From positions 1,046 to 65,045 of the forward strand of contig MWBW01000010.1 in NCBI GenBank assembly GCA_002069725.1: a stretch of DNA of 64,000 nucleotides, written 5' to 3'. This DNA is from Firmicutes bacterium ADurb.Bin248. Lineage in GTDB: Bacteria; Bacillota; Clostridia; Christensenellales; CAG-138. Positions 12,993 through 55,953 of this stretch are shown in pieces (the first letter of the stretch is position 1; each line of letters starts with the position of its first letter). A program made the translations under genes and the position numbers. Under the pieces are notes generated by a model, which saw nothing but the letters and a program-made list of their open reading frames with translations, had not been told where the DNA came from and made no database searches.

Positions 12993-13042
12993 TATTTCCG
13001 CTTTTATCAACCGGGGACGCGCCTCCCCACCGAAAGGCAAAC

Positions 13043-26785: not shown

Positions 26786-26861
26786 GCGCCCATAGCTCAG
26801 CGGATAGAGTGCCCGGCTACGAACCGGTAGGTCGCAGGTTCAAATCCTGCTGGGCGCGCCA
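26786..26861 (+). tRNA. tRNA-Arg (anticodon ACG)
   Basis: Hand-folded cloverleaf. Acceptor GCGCCCA/TGGGCGC. D arm GCTC-AGCGGATA-GAGT. Anticodon arm CCCGG-CTACGAA-CCGGT. T arm GCAGG-TTCAAAT-CCTGC. Discriminator G plus an encoded CCA. Confidence 0.9.
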
Positions 26862-27604: not shown

Positions 27605-27653
27605 CATTGGTGTTTTTTTGGACCGGATCTTTCGGCAAACAAAAGGAGACGCG

Positions 27654-28271
27654 ATGCTTCGATTATCGGATTGGCCCGAAATTAAGGAGGTTCCGTTTTC
27701 CGGCGACCTCGAAACGGACGCCGTCGCCCTGCTCGCGGCGAACGGCAAAACCGTCACGGCGGCGCACACCCCCGCCGTCGCGCGCAAAAGCGAGGCGCTG
27801 GCAAGGCGCTTCGGCCTCGACCAAGTCCGCGCGTCCCGCGCCGCGCTGCTGCACGACGTTTCCGGCGTGCTCAAACCGCGGGAAATGCTCGATTACGCCC
27901 TCCTTCGCGGCTGGAGCCTCGACGAAGCCGAGCGCAGGCACCCCGTGCTGCTGCACCAGCGCATATCGGCCGATTTTGCCAAAGACCTGTTCGGCGTAAA
28001 TGATGCGATCATTCTCTCGGCCATCGCGTGCCATACGACGCTCAGGGTAAATCCTTCCGATTACGACATGCTGCTCTTCCTCGCGGACAAGCTCGCCTGG
28101 GACCGCGCGGGCGTCCCCCCGTTCGAGGCGGCGGTAACGAAGGCGCTGGACCGCTCGCTCGCGCGGGCCTCGCTCGTCTATATCGATTACGCGCTCAACA
28201 ACGGCATGCTCCTTTTTCCACACGGGCAGCTCAATCAGGCGAAAGCCTGGCTGGAGACGGCGTGCTCTTAA
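27654..28271 (+). CDS. HD-domain phosphohydrolase, YqeK-like
   Basis: ATG 27654 after AAAGGAGA. AALLHDVSG (HD), AIACHTT, LLFLADKLAWDR. Confidence 0.6.
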   Translation: MLRLSDWPEIKEVPFSGDLETDAVALLAANGKTVTAAHTPAVARKSEALARRFGLDQVRASRAALLHDVSGVLKPREMLDYALLRGWSLDEAERRHPVLLHQRISADFAKDLFGVNDAIILSAIACHTTLRVNPSDYDMLLFLADKLAWDRAGVPPFEAAVTKALDRSLARASLVYIDYALNNGMLLFPHGQLNQAKAWLETACS

Positions 28272-28391
28272 ATCGCGTAGAACGCACTTAGAATCGGAGG
28301 ACGGAACGGGCAGCCGTCGCCCTTGTTAGGGGATGCGGGAACTGTCGCCCCGCCTGATTCTTAAACGCAGAACAGACGCTTCGGCGCCCGT

Positions 28392-29430: not shown

Positions 29431-29898
29431 TTATTGGATGATCTTGATCCCGCCGATCAGAGGCAGGGGTTTCATCTCGCCCTTGCACACCGCGATCAAA
29501 GCGATGATCCAGAACACGAACTCCGCGATGCCGATGATGATGCCGATGATGATGGCCGCGGTGATGCTGGCGACGATGCCAAGCAGGAACAGCAGAAGCG
29601 CCTGATTCGCCCAGAACTTGCCGAATTCGTCCTTATTGCCCGCGACGAGCGGCAGGAAGAACAGGATCGGGAAAACCACCGCGAGTATCGCCATGGTCTT
29701 ATCGCCCGCGTAGGCGGCGCCCGCCTGCTGGTATGGCGGCTGCTGGTAGACCGGCTGCTGGTAGTTCTGCTGCTGGTAGTTCTGCTGATAGGCGCCCTGG
29801 TCGGCGTTCGCCTGCGCCTGCTGGGCGGGTGAACCGCAGGCCGGGCAGAAGCGCACGCCCTCGTCGAACTGCTGGCCGCAACTGGTGCAGATTGGCAT
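29431..29898 (-). CDS. Zinc-ribbon protein with Q/Y-rich linker and C-terminal multi-TM (DUF4870-like) domain
   Basis: MPICTSCGQQFDEGVRFCPACG (CxxC...CxxC), then QGAYQQNYQQQNYQQPVYQQPPYQQ, then 3-4 hydrophobic helices. Confidence 0.65.
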   Translation of the reverse strand: MPICTSCGQQFDEGVRFCPACGSPAQQAQANADQGAYQQNYQQQNYQQPVYQQPPYQQAGAAYAGDKTMAILAVVFPILFFLPLVAGNKDEFGKFWANQALLLFLLGIVASITAAIIIGIIIGIAEFVFWIIALIAVCKGEMKPLPLIGGIKIIQ

Positions 29899-30079: not shown

Positions 30080-30988
30080 TCAGACGCTCTCGTGCGGCGT
30101 GTAATAGCGCTCGTTCATGAAGCAGCGCGAGAAGCGGGAGGCCGTTTTGTTCCCCTTGCAGACCGCAAGCGTCAAATCGACCGTATACCATTTTTCGGTT
30201 TTGGAATCGTACGCGCTGTTCCAGGCGTGGTAGCCGTTGATCTTGGTGCTGTAGCCCTTGACAAGCTTGCACGGGATGCCCTGGCTGCGGCACATCGCGG
30301 CGAAAAGGGAGGCGAAATCGTAGCACACGCCTTTTTTGTTCGAAAGTATGCTCTCGGGGTTCGGCGTGTAGGCCGTGATCTGCCCGGAGATGACCTTGTT
30401 GGCGAAGTCGTAATCGTATTTGAAATTTTTTGCGATGTAATTGTAGATGGCGAGTATCTTCGCCTGATCGCCCTTGAGATCCTTGCACAGGGCGGCCGCC
30501 TTCCTGGCGATGGAGTCGTTCGCCGAGAAGGCGATTTCGGAAACGCTCCTGAGATACTGCGCATACTGCGGCGCAGCCGCGTTCGCCGCGCCCGCGGGTA
30601 CGGCGGAATCGCCCACGAGCGCCGTGAAGCTCTTCTGCGCGACGGTCACGTAGCTCGCGCCGACCTTCTTGAACAGCGCCGCGGAATAGCTGCCGCTGCC
30701 GCCGGTGAGCGCGAGCGAGAGGGTCATGCCCATTTTATAATCGTAGTAGGACCAGCTTCCGCCGTTAAAGCCCAGCCCCGCCTTCATCGCGGCGGAGGAG
30801 CCGTCGTCGTGAAAAAGGACGATGTACCCGAGCGAGGCCGTGGATGCGTCTATGCCCGCGCTCCGGCCCGCCGTCGAGAGCGAGCCGGAGGTGAGCGGCT
30901 CTCCCGCGGCGGCCGCGGGGGACGCAAGGGCGCTCAGCGCCAGGATCAGCGCGAGGGCAAGCGCGCCATGCCGGAACTGCTTTTTCAC
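30080..30988 (-). CDS. Secreted transglutaminase-like (Cys-His-Asp) protein
   Basis: GTG 30988 start (VKKQFRHGALALALILALSALASPAAAA signal peptide). Core KGVCYDFASLFAAMCRSQGIPCKLVKGY...GYHAWNSAY...WYTVDLT. Confidence 0.75.
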   Translation of the reverse strand: MKKQFRHGALALALILALSALASPAAAAGEPLTSGSLSTAGRSAGIDASTASLGYIVLFHDDGSSAAMKAGLGFNGGSWSYYDYKMGMTLSLALTGGSGSYSAALFKKVGASYVTVAQKSFTALVGDSAVPAGAANAAAPQYAQYLRSVSEIAFSANDSIARKAAALCKDLKGDQAKILAIYNYIAKNFKYDYDFANKVISGQITAYTPNPESILSNKKGVCYDFASLFAAMCRSQGIPCKLVKGYSTKINGYHAWNSAYDSKTEKWYTVDLTLAVCKGNKTASRFSRCFMNERYYTPHESV

Positions 30989-31434
30989 GTTTTCCGTCCT
31001 TTCTTTTCGCGAGGCGGCGCGCCGGGACCGGCCTATGCCTCTCAACTGCCCGAAAACGAAGAAAAAGCTCTCGTTTCGGCAACTGGCTGCCATGCGCTTT
31101 CGCGTTTAGGCCCTCTAGCTTTGCGGCCCCGCCTTTGGACGGGTGTGCCGGTTCGTCGGGATCTTCCGAACGGATATTCGATTCCGGCAACATTATAATT
31201 ACATCTACATAATATTGTCAAGTATAAAATTGTAACCGGGACGAAACGCGCCGTTTCCTGCCGAAAGCGCAGCCCCTGCGGCCGCGGCGCGGTTGCTCCG
31301 AGGTTGCGCGAGGGATGAAGCAAGGCGTCATGCGGCGCAACATTCGGCACAGGCCGTGCAATTCCACGCATTTCCGGAGGCGGAAGCCCAATTAGTTTAC
31401 AGAATATAGAAAAAAGGCGTCGAAAACGGCCTTT

Positions 31435-31467
31435 TGTAACCGCGCTGTAACTCCCTGTTGTTATAAT
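31435..31467 (+). promoter_or_regulatory. Promoter of the giant B-repeat gene: TGTAAC-N5-TGTAAC-N10-TATAAT
   Basis: TGTAAC at 31435-40 and 31446-51 (11-bp phasing), TATAAT at 31462-67. There is no TTGACA-like hexamer at the 17-bp position (ACCGCG). The same architecture occurs at 40722-40754. Confidence 0.55.
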
Positions 31468-31544
31468 TTCATCACAGAATCAGCCGAAACAGGCATATAT
31501 GCCCATAACGGGGCGCAAGCGCAAATACGTCGAGGGGGAAAACG

Positions 31545-34500
31545 ATGATGAAGAGGATCGGCTTGGCCAAGCTCCTGGCGCTCGCCATGACGCTGGTGAT
31601 GGTGTTTTCGGCGGTGAGCCCGGCGCTCGCCTGCGACATCAGCCAGACGACTATTTACTATTATAGAACCGCTGCGGAGAGCGCTTATGCCTCTTACGAT
31701 GTGGCTGCGGGCACCGGCACGAGCACAACGGTCAAGCACACGCTCAAGTCCGCGCCCACGCGCAACGGCTACACGTTCACCGGCTTCAACGTGTATGTCG
31801 GCAGCAAGACGGGTACGCTCATCAAGAGCAACGCCGCACCGGGCACATCGGTGAGCATACCGCTCACGCGCACGAGCACGGGCAAGAGCTGGCCCACGAT
31901 ACATGTGGTGGCCCAGTGGAGATCCAACTGCGTCACCTACGACGTGATCTTCAAGACCGTGCTCGTGGACGGCAAGGGCGGGCAGATCGGCAAGACGGGC
32001 TCCACGCTCGGCTATGCCGACATCGAGTACCTCAACAAGCAGCCCGACACCACGTTCCCGGCGATCCCGGTGACCGATCCCGACCCGGGCTATGTTTTCC
32101 TCGGCTGGTACACCTACAACGGTGCCACCTATACGAAGGTGACGTCGTTCCCGACCAAGATCGACAAGGATTACACCTTCTATGCCCGCTGGGAGGCCAA
32201 GCCCTACGTCGAGCGCAGCGTCTACACCCTCCATTATATAGGTAAGCCTTCCGACACGACCGGCGTCGTGTGGCCCGCGGACGTCGAGAAGCAGGCGTCC
32301 CCCGTCACAACGCTGGGCGTTGCCAGCAAGGTGGGCGCGACGTTCAACGGATGGAAGCTCAACGGCACGGGCGCGAACCGGACGACCCTCGCCGCTTCGG
32401 ACTACACAAAGAGTACGGCCGCGCCCGTCATCACCTACGACGCCGCCACGGACTCCTTCATCCGCACGACCGAGTACATCGCCAACGTCCACGGCGCGTT
32501 CGTCGCGCTCGAGGACGTGATTGAAAAATACTTCTCCGTTACTTACAAAATCGACCTCAACGGCGACGGCGACTATGCCGACGCGGGGGAGACGACGCTC
32601 GCCTTCGTCGACGCCCCGGTTATGCCCACCGCGGTCAATGCCGACGTTTCGGTGCCGGGCTACACCTTCGCGGGCTGGTATAAGAACGGCTCGGCCCCGA
32701 AGCTCACGACGCTCGCCTTCTCGAACTACGATCTCGACGCCTCCCGCACGCAGACCATCCCCGCGGGCCCCGGCACCGCCAAACGCATCAAGAATTACTA
32801 TTCGATCACGCTCGTGGGCACGCTGACCAAGAAGACCTGCCAGAAGAATCTCTACAACGTGACCTACACCGGCGATAAGGCCGGGGCCACCACCTGGCCC
32901 AACGACGTTGCCAACGCCACGAGCGCGCCCTCTCTCGCCGCGGACGCGACGAAGAACGGCTATACCTTCAACGGCTGGAAGATCGGCGGCAGCTCCGTCG
33001 GCTCCATCAACTGGAGCGCGAGCTACGTCACCGTCGCGAGCCGCGAATACTACGACCCGGCGCTCGGAAAGTTCGTCACGGAGACCACGCGCTCGGTCAC
33101 GGTGGTCGGCACCTTCACCAAGTGCGCCGACATCGAGCAGAAATACTACACGGTCGTCTACAAGATCGACCTCAACCTCGACGGCGTCGCCGAGGAAGTC
33201 GCCATGCCCGGCTATACCGTGAACAACGTCACCCCGATGCCCACGGGCGTCGCGGGCGCGCCCTCCGGCATCCCCGCCGGGTACAGCTTCATCGGATGGA
33301 GCGAGTCCGCGCCGCTCGCGCAGAGCGACTTCTCCTTCGTATCCGAAGAGACGGTCCCCAGCGGCACGCCCGGCGTGGGCGCTGTGCACAAGGTCTACTA
33401 TAAGCTGGCCATTACCGGCACGCTGAACAAGCTGACCTGCCAGAAGGACCTCTACAACGTGACTTACACCGGCGACAAGGCCGGGGCCACCACCTGGCCC
33501 AACGACGTCGCCAACGCCGCGAGCGCGCCTTCCCTCGCCGCGGACGCGACGCGGAACGGCTATACCTTCAGCGGCTGGAAGATCAACGGCAGCTCCGTCG
33601 GCTCCATCAACTGGAGCGCGAGCTACGTCACCGTCGCGAGCCGCGAATACTACGATCCGACGCTCGGAAAGTTCGTCACGGAGACCACGCGCTCGGTCAC
33701 GGTGGTCGGCACCTTCACCAAGTGCGCGGACATCGAGCAGAAATATTACACCGTCGTCTACAAGATCGACCTCAACCTCGACGGCGTCGCCGAGGAAGTC
33801 GCCATGCCCGGCTACACCGTGAACAACGTCACCCCGATGCCCACGGGCGTCGCGGGCGCGCCCTCCGGCATCCCCGCCGGATACAGCTTCATCGGATGGA
33901 GCGAGTCCGCGCCGCTCACGCAGAGCGACTTCTCCTTCGTATCCGAGGAGACGGTCCCCAGCGGCACGCCCGGCGTGGGCGCTGTGCACAAGGTCTACTA
34001 CAAGCTGGCCATTACCGGCACGCTGAACAAGCTGACCTGCCAGACGACGCTCTACAACGTGACTTACATCGGCGACAAGGCCGGGGCCACCACATGGCCC
34101 AACGACGTCGCCAACGCCGCGAGCGCGCCCTCCCTCGCCGCGGACGCGACGAGGAACGGCTACACGTTCAGCGGCTGGAAGATCGGCGGCAGCCCCGTCG
34201 GTTCCATCAGCTGGAACGCGAGCTACGTCACCGTCACGAGCCGCGAGTATTACGACGTTTCTCTCGGCAGATTCGTCACGGAGACCACGCGCTCGGTCAC
34301 GGTGGTCGGCACCTTCACCAAGTGCGCCGACATCGAGCAGAAATACTACACGGTCGTCTACAAGATCGACCTCAACCTCGACGGCGTCGCCGAGGAAGTC
34401 GCCATGCCCGGCTATACCGTGAACAACGTCACCCCGATGCCCACGGGCGTCGCGGGCGCGCCCTCCGGCATCCCCGCCGGGTACAGCTTCATCGGATGGA

Positions 34501-37500
34501 GCGAGTCCGCGCCGCTCGCGCAGAGCGACTTCTCCTTCGTATCCGAAGAGACGGTCCCCAGCGGCACGCCCGGCGTGGGCGCTGTGCACAAGGTCTACTA
34601 TAAGCTGGCCATTACCGGCACGCTGAACAAGCTGACCTGCCAGAAGGACCTCTACAACGTGACTTACACCGGCGACAAGGCCGGGGCCACCACCTGGCCC
34701 AACGACGTCGCCAACGCCGCGAGCGCGCCTTCCCTCGCCGCGGACGCGACGCGGAACGGCTATACCTTCAGCGGCTGGAAGATCAACGGCAGCTCCGTCG
34801 GCTCCATCAACTGGAGCGCGAGCTACGTCACCGTCGCGAGCCGCGAATACTACGATCCGACGCTCGGAAAGTTCGTCACGGAGACCACGCGCTCGGTCAC
34901 GGTGGTCGGCACCTTCACCAAGTGCGCGGACATCGAGCAGAAATATTACACCGTCGTCTACAAGATCGACCTCAACCTCGACGGCGTCGCCGAGGAAGTC
35001 GCCATGCCCGGCTACACCGTGAACAACGTCACCCCGATGCCCACGGGCGTCGCGGGCGCGCCCTCCGGCATCCCCGCCGGATACAGCTTCATCGGATGGA
35101 GCGAATCCGCGCCGCTCGCGCAGAGCGACTTTTCCTTCGTATCCGAGGAGACGGTCCCCAGCGGTACGCCCGGCGTGGGCGCGGTGCGCAAGGTCTACTA
35201 TAAGCTCGCCGTCACCGGCACGCTGAACAAGCTGACCTGCCAGACGACGCTCTACAACGTGACCTACACCGGCGACAAGGCCGGGGCCACCACCTGGCCC
35301 AACGACGTCGCCAACGCCACGAGCGCGCCCTCCCTCGCCGCGGACGCGACGCGGAACGGCTACACCTTCAGCGGCTGGAAGATCGGCGGCAGCCCCATCG
35401 GCTCCATCAACTGGAACGCGAGCTACGTCACCGTCACGAGCCGCGAGTACTACGACGTTTCTCTCGGCAAATTCGTCACGGAGACCACGCGCTCGGTCAC
35501 GGTGGTCGGCACCTTCACCAAGTGCGCCGACATCGAGAAGGAATACTACACCGTCGTTTACCGGATCGACCTCAACCGGGACGGCGTCGACGAGATCGTC
35601 AACATGATGGGCTACAGCGTCAGCGAAGTCGAAACCATGCCCACGGGCGTGGCGGGTTCGCCCATCATCCCCAACGGCTATACCTTCGGCGGGTGGGACA
35701 AGGACGCGCCTCTGGCGAAGGGCGACTTCACCGTTGAGCGCCAGGGAACGACCCCGAGCACGCAGCCCGGCGTGGGCGCGGTGCACAGCGTGTATTATAC
35801 GCTCACCATCAAAGGCACGCTGGACAAGCAGACCCTTGCCAAGACCGTCTACACCGTTCTTTACACCGGCGAGAAAGCCGGAGCGACCACCTGGCCCAGC
35901 GACGTGGTCGACGCCGAGACCCCGCCGACCCTCGCCGCAGACGCGACGAAGAACGGCTATACCTTCAACGGCTGGAAGATCAACGGCAACTCCGCCGGCT
36001 CGCTCAACTGGAGCGCGGGCTACGTCGTGAGCACGACCGACGCGGAGTACTACGACGCGGGCCTCAAGAAGTTCGTGACGGTGACGCACAAGACCATCAC
36101 GGTCACGGGCGCGTTCACCAAGTGCGAGGACGTCGAGGAGAAATACTTCTCCGTCACCTATAAGATCGACCTCAACGGCGACGGCGACTATGCCGACGAG
36201 AACGAGACCGTCAACGCCTACGTCGAGGCATCCCCCATGCCCACCGCGGTCAGCGCCGAGCTCGCGCTCGACGGTTATACCTTCGCGGGCTGGTTCAAGC
36301 AGGGCACGGACACGAAGCTCACCGCGCTCGCCTTCACGGATTACACTTTCGACCGGACGGTGACCGTACCCGGCGGCGTGGGCACGCCCAAGACCATCAA
36401 GAACTACTACGTCATCACGCTGACGGGCACGCTGAGCAAGCAAACGCTCGCCAAGACCGACTACTCGGTGACCTACACGGGCGACAAGGCCGGCGCGACC
36501 TTCTGGCCGGCGGACGTCGTGCGGGCCGCGAGCGCGCCCTCCATCGCCGCAGACGCGACGAAGAACGGCTATACCTTCAGCGGCTGGAGCCCCGCCTCGC
36601 TCGACTGGAACGCGGGCTACGTCGACGTGCAGACCGATTCCGAGTATTATGATGCGAGCCTCAAGAAGTTCGTGACGGTGACGCACAAGACCATCACGGT
36701 CACGGGCGCGTTCGTCAAGTGCGAGGACGTCGAGGAGAAGTATTTCTCCGTCACCTACGAGATCGACCTCAACGGCGACGGCGACTATGCCGACGCGGGC
36801 GAAACCGATCCCGCATACGTCGAGACGTTCCCCATGCCTGCCTCCGTCAGGCCGGACGTTTCCAAGGACGGCTATACCTTCCACGGCTGGTATAAGAAGG
36901 GCACGTCGGAGAAGCTCAGCGCGCTCGCCTTCGCGAACTACGATTACGTGCGCACCGTCACCGTGCCGGCAGGCGCGGGCACGCCGCAGATCACCAAGCA
37001 CTATTACGCCGTCACGCTCAGGGGTTCGCTCGTCAAGAGAGTCTGCCAGCAGACCTATTACAGCGTGAGCTACACCGGCGACAAGGAAGGCGCCGCCACC
37101 TGGCCCAACGACGTTGTGAACGCAGCGAGCGCCCCGTCCCTCGCCGCCGACGCGACGAAGAACGGCTTCGACTTCACCGGCTGGAAGATCAACGGCAGCC
37201 CGGTATCCTCGCTCAACTGGTATGCGAGCTACGTGACGGTGACGAGCCTGCCCGAGGAATACGACCCCGAGAGCGGCATGTTCATCACGAAGATCCACCG
37301 CTCCATCACCGTCGAGGGCCGCTTCGTCAAGTGTCCGGATATCGAGCAGGCCTTCTACTCGGTCATTTATAAGATCGACCTCAATCTGGACGGCGTCGCC
37401 GAAGAGGTCAACATGCTCGGCTACACCGTCACGAACGTCACCAAGATGCCCACGGGCGTCGCGGGCTCGCCCGACATCCCCGCCGGCTACAGCTTCAACG

Positions 37501-40460
37501 GGTGGGATCAGGCGCCGCCGCTCGAACTGGGCGATTTCTCCGTGACCTCCGAGGGCACGACGCCCAGCACGCTGCCCGGCGTGGGCGCGATCCACACGGT
37601 GCATTACCTGTGCAGCATCAAGGGCGCCATGACCAAGAACGAGCTGAACGTGGATGTGTACACCGCGCGCTATAACGTGCGCAACGACACCGCCGCGACG
37701 GTCGGCACGTACGACGCGGAGCAGACGGGCTCGGCCCCGCTGAGCGCGCAGGCGCTGCCCTCCGTGACGAAGGGCTACTCGATCCACGGCTGGTACGTGC
37801 AGCTCGACGAGAGCAACACGCCTTACGGCGGGGGCGACGCGCTCCCCTGGGGCTTTGCGAGCGTCAGCGTCGATGAAAAGCTCGAGAAGCACGGCAGCGC
37901 CTGGTACTGGGTGACCTACCACTACTATGCGCTCGGCCTTTCCGCGGTTGTCAGCGAGAACGAGCACGGCCGGGCGGAAGAATACAACCTCAGCTACAGC
38001 ATCGCGGGCGGCCCGTACACCGATCCGACCAGCGGCGCCGCGCTCAGCGCAAGCGGCATACCCGGCGACGTCTTTGCCTCGCCGACCATGCCCGCGCTCG
38101 GAGGCAATCCCTCGATGAAGGGTCACTCGTTCCAAGGCTGGATGCAGGGCGGCGCCGCGATCGGCTCGAGCGCGGACATCGACTGGACCCAAACCACGCG
38201 GCAGGACTACGACGAAGCAAACGACCGCATCATCGACGTGACCATCTATACCGCTGCGGTTTCGGGCGGCTTTACGATGAACCAGGGCGAGCGGACGAGC
38301 TACAACCTCGCCTACTCCTTCGCCAACGAGCCTTATCAGACGCCCGACGGCCTGAACCTCACCATCGGCAACAGGCCGGCCGACGTGAACGGCGCTTCAA
38401 CCCCGCCCGCCCTCGCGGGCGCGCCCTCGGCGCAGGGCCATACCTTCACCGGCTGGACGCAGAACGGCGCCGCCGTGAGCGACGCGACGCTCGCCTGGGG
38501 CAGCGCGGCCGTCAGCTACGAATACGACGCGGACAACGACAGATTCGTTCGGGTCTCGACCTACAGCGCGGCGGTCGTCGGCGACTTCACGCGCAACACC
38601 GGCGAGGAAACCCTGTATAACCTGACTTACACCATCGACGGCGAGCCGTATACGGACCCCGAGGGCAGGACGCTCAGCATAGGCAACCTCCCCGCGAACG
38701 TGAACGACTCCACGACCCGGCCGGGCCTCGCGGGCGCGCCGACGCTCGACGGCCACTCCTTCTCGGGCTGGAAGCAGGCGGGCAATCCCGTGGACGACGC
38801 GAGCCTCGACTTCGGCACGCCGGGCGTCGGCTACCGCTACGACGAAGCAGGCGACCGCTACGTCATGGTCTACAACTACTCCGCGGCCGTCTCCGGCTCC
38901 TTCACGCTCAACGAGATCGTCGAGAAGGAGATCTGGAACCTCACCTACACCGGCGACAAGGATCTCGCCGACCCGGGCACTTGGCCCGACGACCTCACCA
39001 ACCAGGCCAGCGAGCCCGCGCTGACCGGCCTGACGCCGGCCAAACGCGGCTACACCTTCGGCGGCTGGAAGCAGGGCGGCGCGTCCGTGACGGACATCGC
39101 CTGGTCCGCGACGCTGAGCTACGCGCTGGGCGCGGGCAACCGCTTCGTAAAGACCACCACGTATGAGGCGGCCATCGAAGGCAGGCTCACCATGAAGGGC
39201 GGCGTCGACGAGTATGTCTACATCGTGGACTACACCGTGCACGGCGGCTCGAACGATTACAGCCACCTCGACGTCAACGTCACGAATCCTCCCGCGCTCC
39301 CGACCATCGAACCCGAGCCCAGCGAGAGCGGCAAGGTGTTCGGCGGCTGGAACCCCGGTTCGCTCGACTGGGACGGCACCCCGGCCGTGCCGGGTGAACC
39401 GCGCTTCGACGAGACGCTCGACAAGTGGGTCACGCCCTACACCAAGAAGATCGACGTCACGGGCAGCTTCGGAGAGGTCGGGCATGTGTACGTCTACGAG
39501 CTGAGCTTCACCGGCCCCTCCGGCGCGACGTTGCCCGGCATGAAGAGCGGCACCTCCGTGCAGACCATAGAGGGCGAGACCGCCTCGCTCGACGGCCAGC
39601 GCTTCACGGGCTGGAGCCCCTCGAGCATCGGCGAGAGCGACTACACGGAGAACGAATCCCGCAAGACCGTTTCGGGCGACGGCCTGACCGTTACGCATTA
39701 CATGGAGGCCAGCACGCAGGCGCAGTTCGTCCCGACGGAAGGCCGCGAGCACTATACGCTGCATTATGAGATCGTGGGCAGCGTGCCCGGCCAGCCCGCC
39801 AACCCGCCGGACGAGACGGGCACAAGCCCCATCACGCCCAGCGCGCCGGTGAGCCTCGAGGGCTACAACTTCTCCGGCTGGTCCACCCCGGCGTGGGGCG
39901 TCGTGAACGTCACCAGCGAGATCGTCGACGGCGTCGATGTTTCCACGACCTGGTACGAAGCCACGGTCATCGGCTCCTTCACCGACATGCAGATCGTCGA
40001 GGACATCCGCTATTCGCTGCTCTATCAGGGCTACGTCAGCGGCGTCACCAACTGGCCCGGCGACGTGATCGACTCGACCATACCGCCCGCGCTCTCGGGC
40101 AGCCCGTACCTGTCCGGCTATCAGTTCAACGGCTGGGCGCCCGGTACGCTCGACTGGTCGAAGGCGAGCGCCAGCGTCGGCACGCAGGTCGTCACGCCCG
40201 AGGGGGGCGCGCCCTACATACTCAGGACCACGACCTACACGCTGATCGTCACGGCCAGCTTCTCGGGCTACTACCCGCCGCCGACGTCCTATCCCACGTA
40301 CGGCCCCGTGCCCACGCCGACCAAGCCGCCTCTGGGCACGCCGCAAACTGGCAACACCGGCCTGATCATCTTCTTCGCGGTGTTCTCGCTGATCACGGTC
40401 ATCTTCACGGCGAGCCTGTTCATCCGCAAGAAGATGCGCGCCATCGAGGAAGAGGATTGA
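31545..40460 (+). CDS. Giant (2971 aa) cell-surface protein built of InlB B-repeat / Listeria-Bacteroides-repeat modules with a C-terminal xPQTG sorting signal
   Basis: RBS GAGGGGG. Signal peptide MMKRIGLAKLLALAMTLVMVFSAVSPALA. Dozens of (P)x(K/R)xGY(T/S)FxGW motifs. The C-terminus is PLGTPQTGNTGLIIFFAVFSLITVIFTASLFIRKKMR. Confidence 0.9.
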   Translation: MMKRIGLAKLLALAMTLVMVFSAVSPALACDISQTTIYYYRTAAESAYASYDVAAGTGTSTTVKHTLKSAPTRNGYTFTGFNVYVGSKTGTLIKSNAAPGTSVSIPLTRTSTGKSWPTIHVVAQWRSNCVTYDVIFKTVLVDGKGGQIGKTGSTLGYADIEYLNKQPDTTFPAIPVTDPDPGYVFLGWYTYNGATYTKVTSFPTKIDKDYTFYARWEAKPYVERSVYTLHYIGKPSDTTGVVWPADVEKQASPVTTLGVASKVGATFNGWKLNGTGANRTTLAASDYTKSTAAPVITYDAATDSFIRTTEYIANVHGAFVALEDVIEKYFSVTYKIDLNGDGDYADAGETTLAFVDAPVMPTAVNADVSVPGYTFAGWYKNGSAPKLTTLAFSNYDLDASRTQTIPAGPGTAKRIKNYYSITLVGTLTKKTCQKNLYNVTYTGDKAGATTWPNDVANATSAPSLAADATKNGYTFNGWKIGGSSVGSINWSASYVTVASREYYDPALGKFVTETTRSVTVVGTFTKCADIEQKYYTVVYKIDLNLDGVAEEVAMPGYTVNNVTPMPTGVAGAPSGIPAGYSFIGWSESAPLAQSDFSFVSEETVPSGTPGVGAVHKVYYKLAITGTLNKLTCQKDLYNVTYTGDKAGATTWPNDVANAASAPSLAADATRNGYTFSGWKINGSSVGSINWSASYVTVASREYYDPTLGKFVTETTRSVTVVGTFTKCADIEQKYYTVVYKIDLNLDGVAEEVAMPGYTVNNVTPMPTGVAGAPSGIPAGYSFIGWSESAPLTQSDFSFVSEETVPSGTPGVGAVHKVYYKLAITGTLNKLTCQTTLYNVTYIGDKAGATTWPNDVANAASAPSLAADATRNGYTFSGWKIGGSPVGSISWNASYVTVTSREYYDVSLGRFVTETTRSVTVVGTFTKCADIEQKYYTVVYKIDLNLDGVAEEVAMPGYTVNNVTPMPTGVAGAPSGIPAGYSFIGWSESAPLAQSDFSFVSEETVPSGTPGVGAVHKVYYKLAITGTLNKLTCQKDLYNVTYTGDKAGATTWPNDVANAASAPSLAADATRNGYTFSGWKINGSSVGSINWSASYVTVASREYYDPTLGKFVTETTRSVTVVGTFTKCADIEQKYYTVVYKIDLNLDGVAEEVAMPGYTVNNVTPMPTGVAGAPSGIPAGYSFIGWSESAPLAQSDFSFVSEETVPSGTPGVGAVRKVYYKLAVTGTLNKLTCQTTLYNVTYTGDKAGATTWPNDVANATSAPSLAADATRNGYTFSGWKIGGSPIGSINWNASYVTVTSREYYDVSLGKFVTETTRSVTVVGTFTKCADIEKEYYTVVYRIDLNRDGVDEIVNMMGYSVSEVETMPTGVAGSPIIPNGYTFGGWDKDAPLAKGDFTVERQGTTPSTQPGVGAVHSVYYTLTIKGTLDKQTLAKTVYTVLYTGEKAGATTWPSDVVDAETPPTLAADATKNGYTFNGWKINGNSAGSLNWSAGYVVSTTDAEYYDAGLKKFVTVTHKTITVTGAFTKCEDVEEKYFSVTYKIDLNGDGDYADENETVNAYVEASPMPTAVSAELALDGYTFAGWFKQGTDTKLTALAFTDYTFDRTVTVPGGVGTPKTIKNYYVITLTGTLSKQTLAKTDYSVTYTGDKAGATFWPADVVRAASAPSIAADATKNGYTFSGWSPASLDWNAGYVDVQTDSEYYDASLKKFVTVTHKTITVTGAFVKCEDVEEKYFSVTYEIDLNGDGDYADAGETDPAYVETFPMPASVRPDVSKDGYTFHGWYKKGTSEKLSALAFANYDYVRTVTVPAGAGTPQITKHYYAVTLRGSLVKRVCQQTYYSVSYTGDKEGAATWPNDVVNAASAPSLAADATKNGFDFTGWKINGSPVSSLNWYASYVTVTSLPEEYDPESGMFITKIHRSITVEGRFVKCPDIEQAFYSVIYKIDLNLDGVAEEVNMLGYTVTNVTKMPTGVAGSPDIPAGYSFNGWDQAPPLELGDFSVTSEGTTPSTLPGVGAIHTVHYLCSIKGAMTKNELNVDVYTARYNVRNDTAATVGTYDAEQTGSAPLSAQALPSVTKGYSIHGWYVQLDESNTPYGGGDALPWGFASVSVDEKLEKHGSAWYWVTYHYYALGLSAVVSENEHGRAEEYNLSYSIAGGPYTDPTSGAALSASGIPGDVFASPTMPALGGNPSMKGHSFQGWMQGGAAIGSSADIDWTQTTRQDYDEANDRIIDVTIYTAAVSGGFTMNQGERTSYNLAYSFANEPYQTPDGLNLTIGNRPADVNGASTPPALAGAPSAQGHTFTGWTQNGAAVSDATLAWGSAAVSYEYDADNDRFVRVSTYSAAVVGDFTRNTGEETLYNLTYTIDGEPYTDPEGRTLSIGNLPANVNDSTTRPGLAGAPTLDGHSFSGWKQAGNPVDDASLDFGTPGVGYRYDEAGDRYVMVYNYSAAVSGSFTLNEIVEKEIWNLTYTGDKDLADPGTWPDDLTNQASEPALTGLTPAKRGYTFGGWKQGGASVTDIAWSATLSYALGAGNRFVKTTTYEAAIEGRLTMKGGVDEYVYIVDYTVHGGSNDYSHLDVNVTNPPALPTIEPEPSESGKVFGGWNPGSLDWDGTPAVPGEPRFDETLDKWVTPYTKKIDVTGSFGEVGHVYVYELSFTGPSGATLPGMKSGTSVQTIEGETASLDGQRFTGWSPSSIGESDYTENESRKTVSGDGLTVTHYMEASTQAQFVPTEGREHYTLHYEIVGSVPGQPANPPDETGTSPITPSAPVSLEGYNFSGWSTPAWGVVNVTSEIVDGVDVSTTWYEATVIGSFTDMQIVEDIRYSLLYQGYVSGVTNWPGDVIDSTIPPALSGSPYLSGYQFNGWAPGTLDWSKASASVGTQVVTPEGGAPYILRTTTYTLIVTASFSGYYPPPTSYPTYGPVPTPTKPPLGTPQTGNTGLIIFFAVFSLITVIFTASLFIRKKMRAIEEED
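32838..35837 (+). repeat. Five in-frame ~600-bp tandem copies (200-aa double B-repeat supermodule) inside the giant gene
   Basis: The C-Q-(K/T)-x-LYNVTY(T/I)GDKAGATTWPNDVANA module restarts at 32838, 33438, 34038, 34638 and 35238. More diverged copies follow at about 35838, 36447 and 37043. Segment 33072-33904 is base-for-base identical to 34272-35104. Confidence 0.95.
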
Positions 40461-40551: not shown

Positions 40552-40587
40552 ACGGGGGCGGCCGCAAGGCCGCCCCCGTCTCTTTTT
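40552..40587 (+). terminator. Rho-independent terminator after the giant gene
   Basis: ACGGGGGCGGCC-GCAA-GGCCGCCCCCGT followed by CTCTTTTT. It is preceded by a second hairpin, GGAGCGGCC-GAAA-GGCCGCTCC, at 40487-40508. Confidence 0.75.
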
Positions 40588-40721
40588 GGCCGCGCGGCAG
40601 GACGCGGCGCGAAAAACTTCGCGTCGACGTTTTTTTCAGCTTCCCTCGAGTTATGGGAACATTAATAATTTACCGTCATTATATGTCGAATGGGTAAATT
40701 ATAGAATGTTTTTTACGATTT

Positions 40722-40754
40722 TGTAACCGTGGCGTAACTGGGCGCGGTTATAAT
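40722..40754 (+). promoter_or_regulatory. Promoter of the small B-repeat gene: TGTAAC-N5-CGTAAC-N10-TATAAT
   Basis: TGTAAC at 40722-27, CGTAAC at 40733-38, TATAAT at 40749-54. The block TTTTGTAACCG...GTAACT...GTTATAATTTCA is shared with 31432-31471 (31 of 40 positions). Confidence 0.55.
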
Positions 40755-43102: not shown

Positions 43103-44170
43103 TCAGCCGGCGTAGTTTCGGTCGATTCTTCTTGTCATGGAGTCCGGATCGGAGGCGAAGTTGACCGCGTTGTCGTAGCTGATGCGCCCCTTGCGGTAGA
43201 GCTGCGTGATGCTCGCGCCCATGGAGATCATGGTTTCCGGGTTCGCGTAGATCACGTTGTCGATCTGGTGCGCTTTGCCCTCGCGGATGAGGTTCCGGAC
43301 GGCCGGGTTCGCGATCATGACCTCGAACGCGGGCGTCACGCCGCCGTCCACGGTGGGGATGAGCTGCTGGGATACGACCGCGTTGAGCGTCATCGAGAGC
43401 TGCACGCGCACCTGCTGCTGCTGGCCCGTCGGGAACACGTCTATGATCCTGTCCACGGTTTTGGCGGCGCCTATGGTGTGCAGCGTGGAGAGCACGAGCT
43501 GCCCGGTTTCCGCCGCGGTCATGGCGATGCTGATGGTCTCGTAATCCCGCATCTCGCCGACGAGTATCACGTTGGGCGCCTGGCGCAGCGCGTAGCGCAG
43601 CGCGCTCTTGAAGTCCTCGGTATCCAGGCCGACCTCGCGCTGGCTCACGATGCTCCTGTCGTTCTTGTAGAGGTACTCGATGGGGTCCTCAATCGTGATG
43701 ACGTGGCTGGGCAATGTCCTGTTGATGCGGTCCACGATGCAGGAGAGCGTCGTGGATTTGCCGCTGCCCGCGGGACCGGTGATCAGCACGAGGCCCTTCT
43801 TGGCGCTGTAAAGGTTGATCACGCCCGCCGGGATGCTGAGCAGCGCGGGGTCGGGCAGTTCGTGGCGCACGACCCGGATCACGGCCGCGCAGGAGCCCCG
43901 CTGGCGGTACACCGCCGTGCGGAACCTGCCCACGCCCGGTATGGAGAGGGAAAAGTCGTCGTCGCCCGTGCTCTGGAAGCGTTCCAGGCTGCGGTTCCCG
44001 GCGAGCTGGTAGATCTCGCGCACGAGCGCCTCGGTCTTGGCTGAGGTCATCGGCGCGTCCCCGCGGGGGGTGACCACGCCCGCGATTTTGAACGCGAGCG
44101 GGGAGCCCGGCGCGATGATCACATCGGATACGTTGAGGCTGATGGCCTCGATGAGCGTTTTTTCAATCAT
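43103..44170 (-). CDS. pilT: PilT-family type IV pilus retraction-type ATPase
   Basis: 355 aa. LITGPAGSGKSTTL (Walker A), VILVGEMRD (Walker B), TGQLVLSTLHT, and the PilT signature NPAVRNLIREGKAHQIDN. Confidence 0.85.
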   Translation of the reverse strand: MIEKTLIEAISLNVSDVIIAPGSPLAFKIAGVVTPRGDAPMTSAKTEALVREIYQLAGNRSLERFQSTGDDDFSLSIPGVGRFRTAVYRQRGSCAAVIRVVRHELPDPALLSIPAGVINLYSAKKGLVLITGPAGSGKSTTLSCIVDRINRTLPSHVITIEDPIEYLYKNDRSIVSQREVGLDTEDFKSALRYALRQAPNVILVGEMRDYETISIAMTAAETGQLVLSTLHTIGAAKTVDRIIDVFPTGQQQQVRVQLSMTLNAVVSQQLIPTVDGGVTPAFEVMIANPAVRNLIREGKAHQIDNVIYANPETMISMGASITQLYRKGRISYDNAVNFASDPDSMTRRIDRNYAG

Positions 44171-44672
44171 ACATTGTCACCCCGTCCCATAGAAATGGCA
44201 GTTGAGTATATTCCAGATCCCCGGTGACGACCGTGGCGTTGCGAACGAGCGTATAGCCGCCGCCGTCGAGCCGCACCCGGGTTTCCAGCGCCGTGTAGTC
44301 CGAAACCGCCGTGAAGAACGTTATGGTCGCCTCGCTTTGCGCCTTCTCATAAACGTACTTTTCGGCGGCGAGCGCCCCCTCCGCGTCCGGCCCGTCGAGT
44401 ATGCCCCCGGCGAGCAGCGCGTCGAGCCGGGCGAGACGCCGCTGCGCTTCGGCGTCCGCCTCATACCAGCGCACCGTGTTGTCGCCCATGCGCGAGGCGA
44501 GGCGCATCTCCGCGTTCGCGCTCACGAGCGAGAGCGCCGCGAAGCACACGAGGCAGAGCATCACGAACAGTATGATGACGCTCGGCGCGCCCACCGCGGC
44601 GAAGCCGCGCGCCGCGCGCCCGGGCGGGAGGCGCCGCGCGCTCACGCGCCGCCTCCCATAAAGCGCGCGCAT
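44163..44672 (-). CDS. Small membrane-anchored protein of the type IV filament-like operon
   Basis: 169 aa. Arg-rich N-terminus, then a single TM segment SVIILFVMLCLVCFAALSLV. Overlaps both neighbours, suggesting translational coupling. Confidence 0.5.
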   Translation of the reverse strand: MRALYGRRRVSARRLPPGRAARGFAAVGAPSVIILFVMLCLVCFAALSLVSANAEMRLASRMGDNTVRWYEADAEAQRRLARLDALLAGGILDGPDAEGALAAEKYVYEKAQSEATITFFTAVSDYTALETRVRLDGGGYTLVRNATVVTGDLEYTQLPFLWDGVTMYD

Positions 44673-45055
44673 GAAAGAGAATAGATCGCTTCCCCGTCCT
44701 TCTCGCGGACGGACACCGTCATTTCACACATGCCGCCGGCCCGCTCGCACTCGAGCCGGAGTATGTACTCCTGCAGCCCGCCCGGCAAAAAGCTCGGATC
44801 GAGCCACGCCTCGTATCCGCCCTCGGCCTCAACCGCGCCGTAACGCACGGTGAAATCCGCCTCGGGGGAAATTGACGTGCGAACGAGCTCCGCCGCGGAG
44901 CTCGCCGCGAGTATCGCGCCGGAGAGCTCCGCGGCCTCTCCGGCGCGCTTGTCCGCGCCGACGAAGAGCGTGATCACCGCCGTCGCCGCGAGCGCGAAGA
45001 ACAGTATGACCGCAGTCATCTCCACGAGAAAGGCGTAGCCACCGCGCGCGTTCAC
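44642..45055 (-). CDS. Pseudopilin-like protein (degenerate prepilin leader)
   Basis: 137 aa. MNARGGYAFLVEMTAVILFFALAATAVITL resembles the (K/R)G-FTLxEM class III leader but has one extra residue before the Glu. Confidence 0.5.
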   Translation of the reverse strand: MNARGGYAFLVEMTAVILFFALAATAVITLFVGADKRAGEAAELSGAILAASSAAELVRTSISPEADFTVRYGAVEAEGGYEAWLDPSFLPGGLQEYILRLECERAGGMCEMTVSVREKDGEAIYSLSCARFMGGGA

Positions 45056-45543
45056 GGGGAGGCCTCCCCGGCGCGGAGCCGCACATCGAGCGCGCGCATG
45101 GTCCCCTCGAAGGTGTAGGCCGTGAAGGCGTAGCCGCCCTCGATCTCGCGTATGGTGAAATCCGCGAGCTCGGCGATCCTCTGCCCCGCGCCGGGATCGA
45201 AGCGCGCGGCGGCCTCGACGGTCTGCTCCATCAGCGCGCCGTCGAAGAAATAGACCAAAGTCACGCTTTCCCGCTCCTCGTCCCGCAGGCGGAGCACGGG
45301 GAGCCCTTCCGCCTGCTCGATGTCCACGCCGCCAGCGCCGTCGTGCGCGTGGAGCTTGTTGGCGACGTACGAGAGGGACGCGCGCAGGTTGTACCCGTCG
45401 TCCATGCGTCCGGCCACGCGCTCATATACGGCCGCGCCGTAGAGCGCCTGCAGCAGGCTCAGCAAAGCGAATGCCGTGAACAGCAGCAGCATCGCCGCCG
45501 TCGCAGTGATGCCGCGCCCCGCGTCCCGAAGCATGCGCGTCAC
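45052..45543 (-). CDS. Small N-terminally anchored protein (possibly DUF4860-like) of the filament operon
   Basis: 163 aa. MTRMLRDAGRGITATAAMLLLFTAFALLSLL. 4-nt overlaps with both neighbours. Confidence 0.45.
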   Translation of the reverse strand: MTRMLRDAGRGITATAAMLLLFTAFALLSLLQALYGAAVYERVAGRMDDGYNLRASLSYVANKLHAHDGAGGVDIEQAEGLPVLRLRDEERESVTLVYFFDGALMEQTVEAAARFDPGAGQRIAELADFTIREIEGGYAFTAYTFEGTMRALDVRLRAGEASP

Positions 45544-45869
45544 CTCCTCGCGACCCAGATGGTCGGGTAGACGTTCGAGGCGAAGGCCTCGTGGTGGATG
45601 TAATACTTGCTCTGGTCGACCTCGAGGCCGTAGTTTTCAATGAGATAATCGATGCCGGGCGGATAGAAGCCCTCCATGGCGTAGCAGGAAACCACCGCGC
45701 GGTTGACCGCGCGCTCGACGAGCGCAAGCTCCTTTTGCTCCACGCCCAGCCGCGTGCGCTCTATGCCGCGGAGCATCAGCGTCAGGCAGGCCAGGAAAAC
45801 CGCCGCCGTGACGAGAAGCCCGCCCCACCACGGAAAGCCCGCGTTCCGTTTTCCGATGCGCCGCGCCAT
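45540..45869 (-). CDS. Small N-terminally anchored protein of the filament operon
   Basis: 109 aa. MARRIGKRNAGFPWWGGLLVTAAVFLACLTLML. A G-F junction is present but there is no Glu5. Confidence 0.45.
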   Translation of the reverse strand: MARRIGKRNAGFPWWGGLLVTAAVFLACLTLMLRGIERTRLGVEQKELALVERAVNRAVVSCYAMEGFYPPGIDYLIENYGLEVDQSKYYIHHEAFASNVYPTIWVARR

Positions 45870-45879
45870 ACCGCCCCGC

Positions 45880-46923
45880 TCAGCCGATGCCCGCCATGAT
45901 GTCCATCAGCGGCAGCGTCACCGAGAGCAGTATCGCCCCGATGATGAGGCACAGCAGCGCCACGAGCGCGGGCTCTATGACGCCCACGAGCCGGGCGATC
46001 GAGCGGTCGATCTCATCCTCGTAGAGGGCGGCGACCTTGGCGCTCACGCGCTCGAGCGCGCCCGCGCGAAAGCCCACGCCGAGTATGTGCGCGTACATGC
46101 CCGGGAAGAGACCGCTTTCCTCGACGGCTTTGGAAAAGGACGCGCCCTGGGCTATGGCCTCGCGGCAGGCGAGTATCTGCGCGGCCGCCCTGTCGCTGTC
46201 TACGACGAGGGGCAGTTTCGCGAGCGCGTCGTCGAGCGCGTACCCGCTTTCGAGCAGCATCGAGAGCGCGAAGGCGAAACGTCCCGCGGCGATTTTTTCG
46301 GCGAGCCTTCGCGTGAAGCCGAGGCGCGCCAGGCCGCGCATGAGCGCGGCGTAGCCCGAGGCGGAGCGTAGCCTCGCAAAGAGATGGATGCACAGGACGA
46401 GCATCAGCGCCGCGAGCGCGAGCGCGAGGTAGCCCGCGATCTCGCCGAACGACGCGATCTCCGGAGAAACCGCGCCCGCCGCGCCCCCGAGGTCCGCGAA
46501 CACATCCGCGAAAACGGGCAGCACCCGGATGAGCAGCACCGCGATCACGACGATCATGATCGCCACGAGCGCCATCGGGTAGAACACCGCGGATTTGATC
46601 TGGTTTCTGACGGCGTGCTCGCGCTCGTAGTAGAGGCCGAGCGCCTCCATGACCTGCTCGAGCTTGCCCGCGGCTTCGCCCAGATCCACCATGCCCAGCA
46701 TATAATCCGGGAAGGCGTCCGTTGCGCGCATCGCGGGTGCGAGTCCGGCGCCGCCCTGCAAGGCGGTATGGAGCCTCGCGACGACGGGGTCGCCGCTTTC
46801 CTTGGCCATGGCCGCCATGCCGTCGGGCAAAAACATGCCGGTGCGCAGCACCAGCGCAAGCTCCGCGCAAAACGCGGAAAGCTCCTGCGCCGTATAGGGC
46901 CGGACGCCGTTTTTGTTCGCCAT
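45880..46923 (-). CDS. Type II secretion system F-family (PilC/ComGB-like) platform protein
   Basis: 347 aa. Two T2SSF-like halves with conserved TM helices (AVFYPMALVAIMIVVIAVLLIRVLPVF... and ...ALVALLCLIIGAILLSVTLPLMDIM). Confidence 0.8.
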   Translation of the reverse strand: MANKNGVRPYTAQELSAFCAELALVLRTGMFLPDGMAAMAKESGDPVVARLHTALQGGAGLAPAMRATDAFPDYMLGMVDLGEAAGKLEQVMEALGLYYEREHAVRNQIKSAVFYPMALVAIMIVVIAVLLIRVLPVFADVFADLGGAAGAVSPEIASFGEIAGYLALALAALMLVLCIHLFARLRSASGYAALMRGLARLGFTRRLAEKIAAGRFAFALSMLLESGYALDDALAKLPLVVDSDRAAAQILACREAIAQGASFSKAVEESGLFPGMYAHILGVGFRAGALERVSAKVAALYEDEIDRSIARLVGVIEPALVALLCLIIGAILLSVTLPLMDIMAGIG

Positions 46924-51780: not shown

Positions 51781-52130
51781 TAATTGTCAATGATCCCGTC
51801 CCGCCCGCGGCGGCGTTCTTTGATTGTCAATTATCAATTGTCAATTGTCAATTATCAATTATCAATGATCCCATCCCGCCCGCAGGCGGCGTTCCCCGAT
51901 TGTCAATTGTCAATTATCAATTATCAATTATCCCATCCCGCCCGCGGCGGCGTTCCCCGATTGTCAATTGTCAATTATCAATTATCAATTATCCCGTCCC
52001 GCCCGCGGCGGCGTTCCCCGATTGTCAATTGTCAATTGTCAATTATCAATTATCAATTATCCCATCCCGCCCGCAGGCGGCGTTCCCCGATTGTCAATTG
52101 TCAATTGTCAATTGTCAATTATCAATTGCC
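51781..52130 (-). repeat. Heptad-array + GC-hairpin composite repeat, array D (5 units; largest)
   Basis: Five CCC(G/A)TCCCGCCCGC(A)GGCGGCGTTC hairpin cores centred near 51808, 51883, 51945, 52006 and 52074 (spacings 75, 62, 61, 68 bp). They are separated by CAATTGT/CAATTAT heptad runs. This is the reverse complement of arrays A and B, so it is co-oriented with glgA. Confidence 0.92.

Positions 52131-54684: not shown

Positions 54685-54695
<11 letters not shown>
53571..54695 (-). CDS. glgD: Glucose-1-phosphate adenylyltransferase regulatory subunit GlgD
   Basis: 374 aa. [27 protein letters not shown]. Lacks the GGxGxRL loop of GlgC. Positioned between glgC and glgA. Confidence 0.88.
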
Positions 54696-55923
<1,228 letters not shown>

Positions 55924-55953
55924 ACTTGCTCCGCCTCCTTCTACTAATAGGAT

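Follow-up and report, generated by a model that had tools for sequence, protein, structure and literature searches.

A giant InlB B-repeat gene of Firmicutes bacterium ADurb.Bin248 predicted to encode a wall-anchored surface fibre

The 64,000-nucleotide (nt) stretch analysed here (the window) is part of contig MWBW01000010.1 of Firmicutes bacterium ADurb.Bin248, which NCBI taxonomy ranks as unclassified Bacillota only, and it contains a giant surface-protein gene at 31545..40460 (+) that is the subject of this study. The coding sequence has an ATG start and 2971 codons plus a stop; an original prediction, made from the sequence by eye, had described an 8.9-kb open reading frame (ORF) of 2971 amino acids (aa) with exactly these coordinates. 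Read from its second Met, the protein corresponds to OQA73234.1, deposited as 'hypothetical protein BWY35_00734' and encoded on a contig of 66,024 nt. Since the G+C content at codon positions 1/2/3 is 0.53/0.50/0.91, the frame was taken as real. A 2243-aa ORF on the opposite strand (31461..38192, -) shows values of 0.90/0.50/0.52, which mirror those of the real frame as expected at a genome G+C of 64%, and it is therefore a shadow and not a gene, as had been predicted. A ribosome binding site (RBS), GAGGGGG, lies at 31532..31538 (+), 6 nt 5′ of the ATG, and its GGGGGA is kept in the alignment of promoter regions. The mature protein is about 310 kDa, has a pI of 4.7 and is rich in Thr, Gly, Ala, Val, Ser and Tyr.

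The protein begins with a signal peptide, MMKRIGLAKLLALAMTLVMVFSAVSPALA|C (aa 1-29; 31545..31631, +), with an AxA site and predicted cleavage at ALA|C; family members have similar N-termini. A lipoprotein reading of ALA|C was ruled out, since position -4 is Pro, position -3 is Ala and there is no lipobox. The domain parsing that had been proposed as a check placed the protein well over both of the relevant cut-offs, with 197 bits for PF09479 (Flg_new; cut-off 27) and 91.8 bits for TIGR02543 (cut-off 20.95), and fragments belonging to the protein's cluster are labelled 'InlB B-repeat-containing protein' by NCBI. The strict core G[YFH]x[FI]xGW occurs in 25 copies spaced by about 100 aa. When degenerate cores are counted too, there are 29 modules of 85-116 aa, contiguous over residues 30-2908, which gives an exact number to the dozens of GY(T/S)FxGW modules noticed originally. 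A hidden Markov model of one module type picks up nearly all of the other modules, and the remainder carry the motif or a canonical Pfam match. Since the 29 modules tile aa 30-2908 without gaps, no space remains for a head or enzyme domain. In Pfam and NCBIfam scans of the giant protein no family besides the Flg_new type passed threshold and no enzymatic domain was found, in agreement with the original inspection; nor did these scans detect an SLH or CWB2 wall-binding domain, a carbohydrate-binding module (CBM), a cohesin or a dockerin. Weak matches to GARS_C, GEVED and laterosporulin were dismissed as below cut-off or driven by the repeats.

Module sub-families A, B1, B2 and C, plus singletons, were recovered, as the initial description of several sub-families had suggested. 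A modules start with LYNVTYTGDKAGATTWP, B1 and B2 modules with YYTVVYKIDLNxDG, and the three C modules with YNLxYxIxxEPYTDP; alternation of A and B generates supermodules of 200 aa. The N-terminal modules 1-4 (aa 30-429; 31632..32831, +) would form the distal tip and include, as module 2, the most canonical Flg_new unit (best Pfam stretch aa 180-214). They are followed by a near-identical tandem array of 4.5 A+B supermodules of 600 nt each (aa 430-1330; 32832..35534, +), where copy-number differences and assembly breaks fall, by diverged A/B supermodules that are 50-75% identical to the array units (aa 1331-2037; 35535..37655, +), and by the non-duplicated C-terminal modules 21-29, including the three of C type, which are colinear with those of orthologues (aa 2038-2908; 37656..40268, +). 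Whereas the canonical Flg_new unit spans about 65-70 aa and ends in aromatic-x-A-x-W, the modules of the giant protein span 85-116 aa and only module 2 is canonical; downstream of the GW core the others carry an extra hairpin (model strands 67-75 and 80-97) in place of the LYAKW end. From the models, we read these modules as an elaborated InlB B-repeat in which the LYAKW end appears to have been swapped for the extra hairpin. A D-L-N-x-D-G loop is present in nine of nine B modules and resembles the Ca2+-binding DxDxDG loop, a likeness of sequence pattern only.

AlphaFold2, supplied with shallow alignments of the internal repeats, returned all-beta models with long strands for both a two-module unit (pLDDT 93.5) and a single module (pLDDT 94.6), so that prediction of an approximately 200-aa supermodule, another of the checks proposed at the outset, gave a confident all-beta model. 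In Foldseek comparisons with PDB, the top match of the two-module model was InlB 36-392, which contains the B-repeat, although weakly (E 0.011, probability 0.54); the same structure ranked third for the single module, again weakly (TMq 0.41, 20% identity, E 1.2). Rows for BamA-POTRA, cadherin and Nudix were set aside as noise (E>0.1). A phmmer search of the whole giant protein against PDB sequences gave no match.

The C-terminal end of the protein reads ...SGYYPPPTSYPTYGPVPTPTKPPLGTPQTGNTGLIIFFAVFSLITVIFTASLFIRKKMRAIEEED. It comprises a Pro-rich linker, YYPPPTSYPTYGPVPTPTKPP (aa 2909-2929; 40269..40331, +), and a sorting signal made up of TPQTG (aa 2932-2936), 21 hydrophobic residues and the tail RKKMRAIEEED (40338..40457, +). 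The wall-sorting signal of the original prediction is thus present, with its hydrophobic segment and basic tail. Of the Pro-rich stalk described there, the Pro-rich segment was recovered but the name was not: the segment is more probably a linker of about 25 aa that spans the wall, and the stalk is the module array. A C-terminal [STVIA]PxTG, a hydrophobic transmembrane segment and an R/K tail are conserved in 14 family members, and the C-termini of all family members follow the pattern (I/P)P(L/V/T)G-[STVIA]-P-x-T-G, hydrophobic stretch and R/K tail, their signal peptides also being similar. The family motif resembles the (S/P)PxTG of the Clostridioides difficile sortase.

A full-length search yielded at least four relatives among the matches listed. 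An exhaustive HMMER search of 1.84 billion representatives, with a profile that covered the anchor and the five C-terminal modules, gave 145 proteins at E<=1e-3, of which 14 reach E<=1e-30; about seven of these 14 are large (1046-2466 aa, with all or most of the profile) and about seven are paralogue-like or fragments (154-460 aa). By this measure the family is rare. Orthologues have lengths of 1764 aa (L012, the Clostridia metagenome-assembled genome 'binned_ad_9.19'), 1659, 2466, 1462 and at least 1326 aa, the last in L026, possibly of one lineage with L012. Between L012 and the window, colinearity covers the N-terminal 430 aa and the C-terminal ~1140 aa, and the central A/B array of L012 is shorter; the comparative genomics suggested originally thus finds orthologues in related lineages with arrays of varying length. 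The window also encodes a small paralogue of 338 aa (OQA73235.1; 40837..41853, +) with a signal peptide, an APQTG sorting signal and two to three modules that resemble modules 27-29 of its giant relative. Fragments of this paralogue carry the NCBI label 'LPXTG cell wall anchor', and one or two genes of this type are present in related lineages (in L025, at 10695-11747 and 12008-13102). As a separate observation, the giant protein has 17 cysteines (aa 432, 527, 632, 727 ... 1930; window 32838-37334), nearly all of them one per inter-module linker (LNKLTCQK or FTKCADIE), with a spacing that alternates between 95 and 105 aa; the pattern is conserved in L012 and not in the relative P0010.

The near-identical array was compared among assemblies. 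Its four 600-nt units and half of a fifth share 93-98.3% nt identity pairwise, with exact shared runs of 366-467 nt, in line with the internal near-identity first noted; Tandem Repeats Finder, run with periods of up to 500 nt and hence below the 600-nt unit, found nothing. Further units have diverged to about 70%. The four units of the window carry distinct patterns of single-nucleotide polymorphisms (SNPs), which argues for the existence of four or more unit variants in the population. The contigs used for comparison were other public assemblies that carry the flanking genes and represent the same strain-level population; outside the array, overlapping contigs are 99.8-100% identical to the window. 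With the window assembly as the reference, without deletion, clean deletions of 1200 nt, 1800 nt and 2400 nt were seen in L015 (a 117-kb contig of GCA_022706965.1), L001 (JGI 3300010344; database representative P0009, 2371 aa) and L016, respectively, the junction in L001 falling in a 62-nt identical stretch. Length differences between same-strain assemblies are thus exact multiples of 600 nt.

Taken together, these features argue, at a probability of roughly 65%, that the giant protein is a secreted, covalently wall-anchored fibrillar surface protein. The class to which it belongs, the sortase-anchored repeat fibre of Gram-positive bacteria, is a known and ordinary one. As inferred from the sequence, the protein would be exported by Sec, its signal peptide cleaved, and the TPQTG with its hydrophobic segment and basic tail then processed by a sortase, and the short Pro-rich linker would reach across the wall. 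The 29 head-to-tail all-beta modules would probably form an elongated fibre, by analogy with tandem stalk-domain proteins, with a length of the order of 100 nm if 3-4 nm is assumed per module. In work on fibrillar adhesins, Flg_new is counted among the stalk domains (bioRxiv 10.1101/2021.12.07.471604). Since there is no separate head domain, any binding would have to reside in the modules, the divergent distal modules 1-4 being the most plausible site. We propose that the central A/B array, whose DNA is near-identical and which differs between orthologues, is expandable and would change length through recombination, each step being 600 nt (200 aa). Length variation of tandem domain arrays is driven by high identity of their DNA (PMC8201768), and a change in array length would alter the projection of the tip, as in 'periscope' proteins.

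Several results weigh against this interpretation. Position 1 of the anchor motif is Thr and not Leu, and the giant protein scores 14.4 bits with the LPXTG_anchor model TIGR01167, just under the cut-off of 15.9 that the small paralogue passes with 17.0 bits. No sortase was found by a TLxTC signature scan and Pfam scans of 30 window ORFs, or among the Pfam labels of neighbours in related loci. No head domain, adhesive or catalytic, was found in the giant protein by Pfam, NCBIfam or module tiling. Foldseek gave no match in PDB at E<=0.001 for either the two-module or the single-module model; since there is no significant solved homologue, the fold assignment rests on sequence. Finally, the array length differences are known from four short-read assemblies, in which collapse and true variation look alike, and all of them could be short-read collapse and not biology.

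For a wall-anchored fibre of this kind, the protein class and the habitat suggest adhesion, and its role is probably attachment to particles or other cells, or surface shaping, in anaerobic-digester communities. The habitat, digester or sewage, is our own interpretation of three source names (ADurb.Bin248, 'binned_ad' and 'CPH_Sewage'), most records being without habitat. Particles or other cells are more plausible partners than a host, and the part in host interaction that had been envisaged for the protein looks unlikely, as the few names with a bearing on habitat suggest digesters or sewage.

A different explanation accepts the gene as real but takes its 2971-aa form for a product of assembly, in which the array was collapsed, expanded or built as a mosaic of strains and the true number of supermodules is another; we consider the chance of this to be somewhat short of even. 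Four array arrangements (0, 1200, 1800 and 2400 nt deleted) occur in otherwise identical DNA, the exact runs shared by the units are longer than short reads, and about 17 other contigs end within the gene, about 10 of them either where the array is entered or at its exit near 35532. In L015 the gene (1729-9444, -) has a frameshift near its 3′ end that divides it into 2426 + 131 aa, and on an ENA contig of 57,887 nt (P0017, P0018, P0020) the giant gene is present as three ORFs and the paralogue as two; these interruptions may stem from errors of assembly or, in some populations, from pseudogenisation. An assembler, however, could not have invented the distinct SNP patterns that set the four units apart (93-98%), the reading frame is unbroken through the array, and the unique parts agree at 99.8-100%, with N-terminal contigs that match the window outside the array. 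The gene itself is real and 2971 aa is the count of one assembly; the differing arrays and the contig breaks within the gene justify the concern about repeat assembly that had been raised at the start.

The remaining explanations concern what the protein does. The InlB B-repeat can itself contact ligands, and if Flg_new-type modules can do so generally, it would count against a purely passive part for the fibre, as would modules 1-4, which differ from those of the array and are kept in the L012 orthologue, suggesting a specific function of the tip. A passive spacer or shield, that is, a long acidic fibre that fixes the distance between cells or between cell and particle, hides shorter molecules of the surface or wards off phage or predators, is unlikely, even though the protein has stalk-type modules throughout, no head domain and an acidic mature form (pI 4.7), and the literature discusses proteins that are all stalk as well as steric regulators, SasG among them (bioRxiv 10.1101/2021.12.07.471604). 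It is quite unlikely that the protein is a multivalent substrate-binding scaffold whose modules bind polysaccharide, mineral or a Ca2+-bridged surface and hold the cell to a food particle. The D-L-N-x-D-G loops, the GEVED match and a Thr/Gly/Ala/Tyr-rich composition typical of glycan-contacting surfaces would fit such a scaffold, and Flg_new repeats are present in enzymes of gut polysaccharide degraders; but the Ca2+ motif is a mere resemblance, the GEVED match is below threshold, the protein has no CBM, cohesin, dockerin or enzyme domain, and no carbohydrate-active genes adjoin the giant gene according to the Pfam labels of the neighbouring ORFs. An S-layer or other self-assembling coat, as in the S-layer-like role of the original prediction, is highly improbable: its favouring points are the size, repeats and secretion of the protein and the abundance that a strong RBS and promoter may bring, but the protein has neither SLH nor CWB2 for non-covalent wall binding, its C-terminus is a covalent sorting signal, and a linear array of 29 modules is not a lattice-forming architecture.

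Expression of the giant gene was addressed through its flanking signals. Its promoter core (31435..31467, +) consists of TGTAAC-CGCGC-TGTAAC (31435-31451), 10 nt and TATAAT (31462-31467), and that of the small paralogue (40722..40754, +) reads TGTAAC-CGTGG-CGTAAC ... TATAAT; a third half-site in phase with these two, TTTTAC, is located at 40711, 11 nt upstream of the latter. Within the 64-kb window, the core TTTGTAAC-N6-GTAAC-N10-TATAAT was found at the giant gene and the paralogue only. A TGTAAC-N5-(T/C)GTAAC core occurs in nine promoters of large and small Flg_new genes from several lineages, at a fixed distance of about 110 nt from the ATG and with diverged flanks; in all loci examined (the window, L011, L012, L013, L014 and L025) the element was seen at Flg_new surface-protein genes only. 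The WalR consensus is TGTWAH-N5-TGTWAH (PMC9210968), and the sequence at 31435-31451 is its sole exact match in the 64 kb; six of the nine family promoters match it exactly and the other three have C as the first base of the second half-site. The direct repeat stops 10 nt upstream of the -10 box and so occupies the usual place of the -35 element. A repeat in place of the -35 element is the geometry of OmpR/PhoB-type activated promoters, and similar repeats are recognised by many OmpR-family regulators. The geometry thus points to activation by a response regulator of the OmpR/PhoB family (WalR-like), and the promoter appears to be under regulation and not constitutive. No two-component system was found in the window by Pfam scans of 30 ORFs, nor among the Pfam labels of neighbours in related loci, and no riboswitch emerged on the surface-protein genes when the 5′ regions of both Flg_new genes were searched permissively with Rfam. 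An intrinsic terminator with a 12-bp GC stem and T run (40552..40589, +) is located 3′ of the stop codon, followed by a second terminator-like site (40605-40636, +). Since two intrinsic terminators come after its stop codon, the giant gene is considered monocistronic, and the dedicated promoter proposed originally is borne out by a promoter and terminator of its own. In the suggested mechanism, a WalR-like response regulator would activate this single-gene transcript at TGTAAC-N5-TGTAAC.

The gene had been classed as an accessory feature, a view that its setting does not support. Its G+C content is that of its surroundings; the genes of the window include gyrB, recF, cca, mnmE, cysS, murG and glycerol and glycogen genes; and synteny extends to four to five related lineages. 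Since gyrB/recF and a glycogen operon are present, the window was assigned to the core chromosome. The block conserved in these lineages (the window, L012, L013, L025 and L026) has on one strand a DMT_YdcZ transporter, a zinc-ribbon membrane protein and a transglutaminase-like gene, and on the other the giant Flg_new gene with one or two small Flg_new/xPQTG paralogues. The transglutaminase-like gene (30080..30988, -; GTG start; OQA73233.1) encodes a secreted protein of 302 aa with a papain-fold Cys-His-Asp arrangement, a signal peptide and a PF01841 Transglut_core match of 78 bits; the solved structures closest to it are those of putative cysteine proteases or uncharacterised proteins. Its transcript, which diverges from that of the giant gene, carries a class I cyclic di-GMP (c-di-GMP-I) riboswitch aptamer (31075..31159, -; RF01051, 67.1 bits, gathering score 35), preceded by a sigma-70 promoter that matches the consensus at 12 of 12 positions (TTGACA-18-TATAAT; 31192..31221, -). 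The aptamer is found upstream of the transglutaminase-like gene at all five loci, in tandem at two of them (L013, 9477-9566 and 9627-9713; L025, 5450-5544 and 5604-5699). Folding of the riboswitch expression platform showed no clear terminator (z-score 0.13).

Other features of the window were recorded as well. The zinc-ribbon member of the conserved block (29431-29898, -) is a 155-aa protein with a weak MamF_MmsF match, and a second protein with an N-terminal zinc ribbon, of 567 aa and with no other recognised domain, is encoded at 59100-60803 (-). A skipping-rope RNA (RF02924, 58.7 bits; 28290-28361, +) lies just 3′ of an HD-domain gene (27618-28271), and a tRNA-Arg(ACG) is located at 26786-26861. 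About 2.6 kb 3′ of the giant-gene stop codon begins a cluster resembling type IV pilus or type II secretion system (T2SS) genes (43103-46923, -), with a T2SSE ATPase (355 aa), four small proteins including a DUF4860 protein, and T2SSF (347 aa); it is syntenic in the window population, L012 and L026, and not in L025. The left end of the window contains gyrB and recF (1613-4693, -), which suggests that the replication origin is near, and the right part contains the glycogen operon (glgA, glgD/glgC-like, glgB; 52108-57807, -).

Comparison with known systems places the giant protein near several groups. Like the fibrillar adhesin-like proteins with Flg_new stalks described by Monzon and Bateman in Firmicutes and Actinobacteria, it has a signal peptide, a long array of Flg_new type, a sortase-type anchor and a Thr-rich, Leu-poor composition; unlike them it has no recognisable head, and its modules are of 85-116 aa against about 65-70 aa, with the extra beta-hairpin replacing the LYAKW end. 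With the periscope proteins (SasG, Aap, Rib, Sgo_0707 and Esp; PMC8201768) it shares near-identical folded tandem domains between an N-terminal tip and an LPXTG-type anchor; to judge from short-read metagenome assemblies, the giant gene may also resemble them in a length that differs by whole repeats. Its repeats, in contrast, are not SHIRT, G5-E or Rib domains but two-module supermodules of 200 aa, its near-identical part is limited to 4.5 units, and its N-terminus (aa 30-429) consists of four Flg_new-type modules with no distinct ligand-binding domain. The B-repeat of Listeria monocytogenes InlB, the founding member of PF09479, has in common with it the sequence family, the GY(T/S)FxGW core and the best meaningful structural match, weak as this is (E 0.011, TMq 0.2-0.41); InlB, however, has one B-repeat between its LRR/IR domain and GW anchoring modules, whereas the giant protein has 29 elaborated repeats, no LRR and a predicted covalent anchor. 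Large, Flg_new repeat-rich, predicted surface proteins are also found among the adhesin-like proteins of gut methanogens (Methanomassiliicoccales, Methanimicrococcus), where they have been proposed as factors of habitat adaptation; those proteins are archaeal and differently anchored, and they have no supermodule array and no close sequence relationship to the giant protein.

The arrangement of the locus recalls the CD2831/CD3246 adhesins and ZmpI/PPEP-1 of C. difficile (PMC6366702), which have a non-Leu xPxTG sortase substrate, a Pro-rich segment by the anchor and an adjoining secreted-enzyme gene with a class I c-di-GMP riboswitch on its mRNA. The neighbouring enzyme here differs in having a PF01841 transglutaminase-like Cys-His-Asp fold and not that of a Pro-Pro metalloprotease, and the giant gene and its paralogue differ from CD2831/CD3246 in having the WalR-type box and no riboswitch found on them. 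We suggest, tentatively and at low odds, that the giant protein, its paralogue(s) and the transglutaminase-like enzyme may constitute one conserved module for attachment and release, or attachment and cross-linking, in which an envelope-sensing WalR-type regulator would drive the fibres, while c-di-GMP would act through one or two class I riboswitches to adjust how much is made of an enzyme that either trims the fibres from the wall or cross-links them. In such a module, the enzyme could target the conserved (I/P)PLGxPxTG/Pro-rich segment or the inter-module linkers that bear Cys, Gln or Lys.

The gene provides a worked example of how short-read metagenome assembly may misstate giant repeat genes, with four lengths for one gene and a database representative of 2371 aa. 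Its product is built from a form of the InlB B-repeat that is rare and lineage-restricted, with 100-aa modules arranged in 200-aa supermodules, for which there is a confident model and no solved counterpart. If the proposed module for attachment and release exists, it would be functionally analogous to C. difficile PPEP-1/CD2831 while consisting of unrelated components. The pairing of a c-di-GMP riboswitch with the neighbouring enzyme, together with the WalR-type box of the surface-protein genes, leads to hypotheses on how uncultured digester Clostridia may switch between attached and free states, with a bearing on the formation of flocs and granules.

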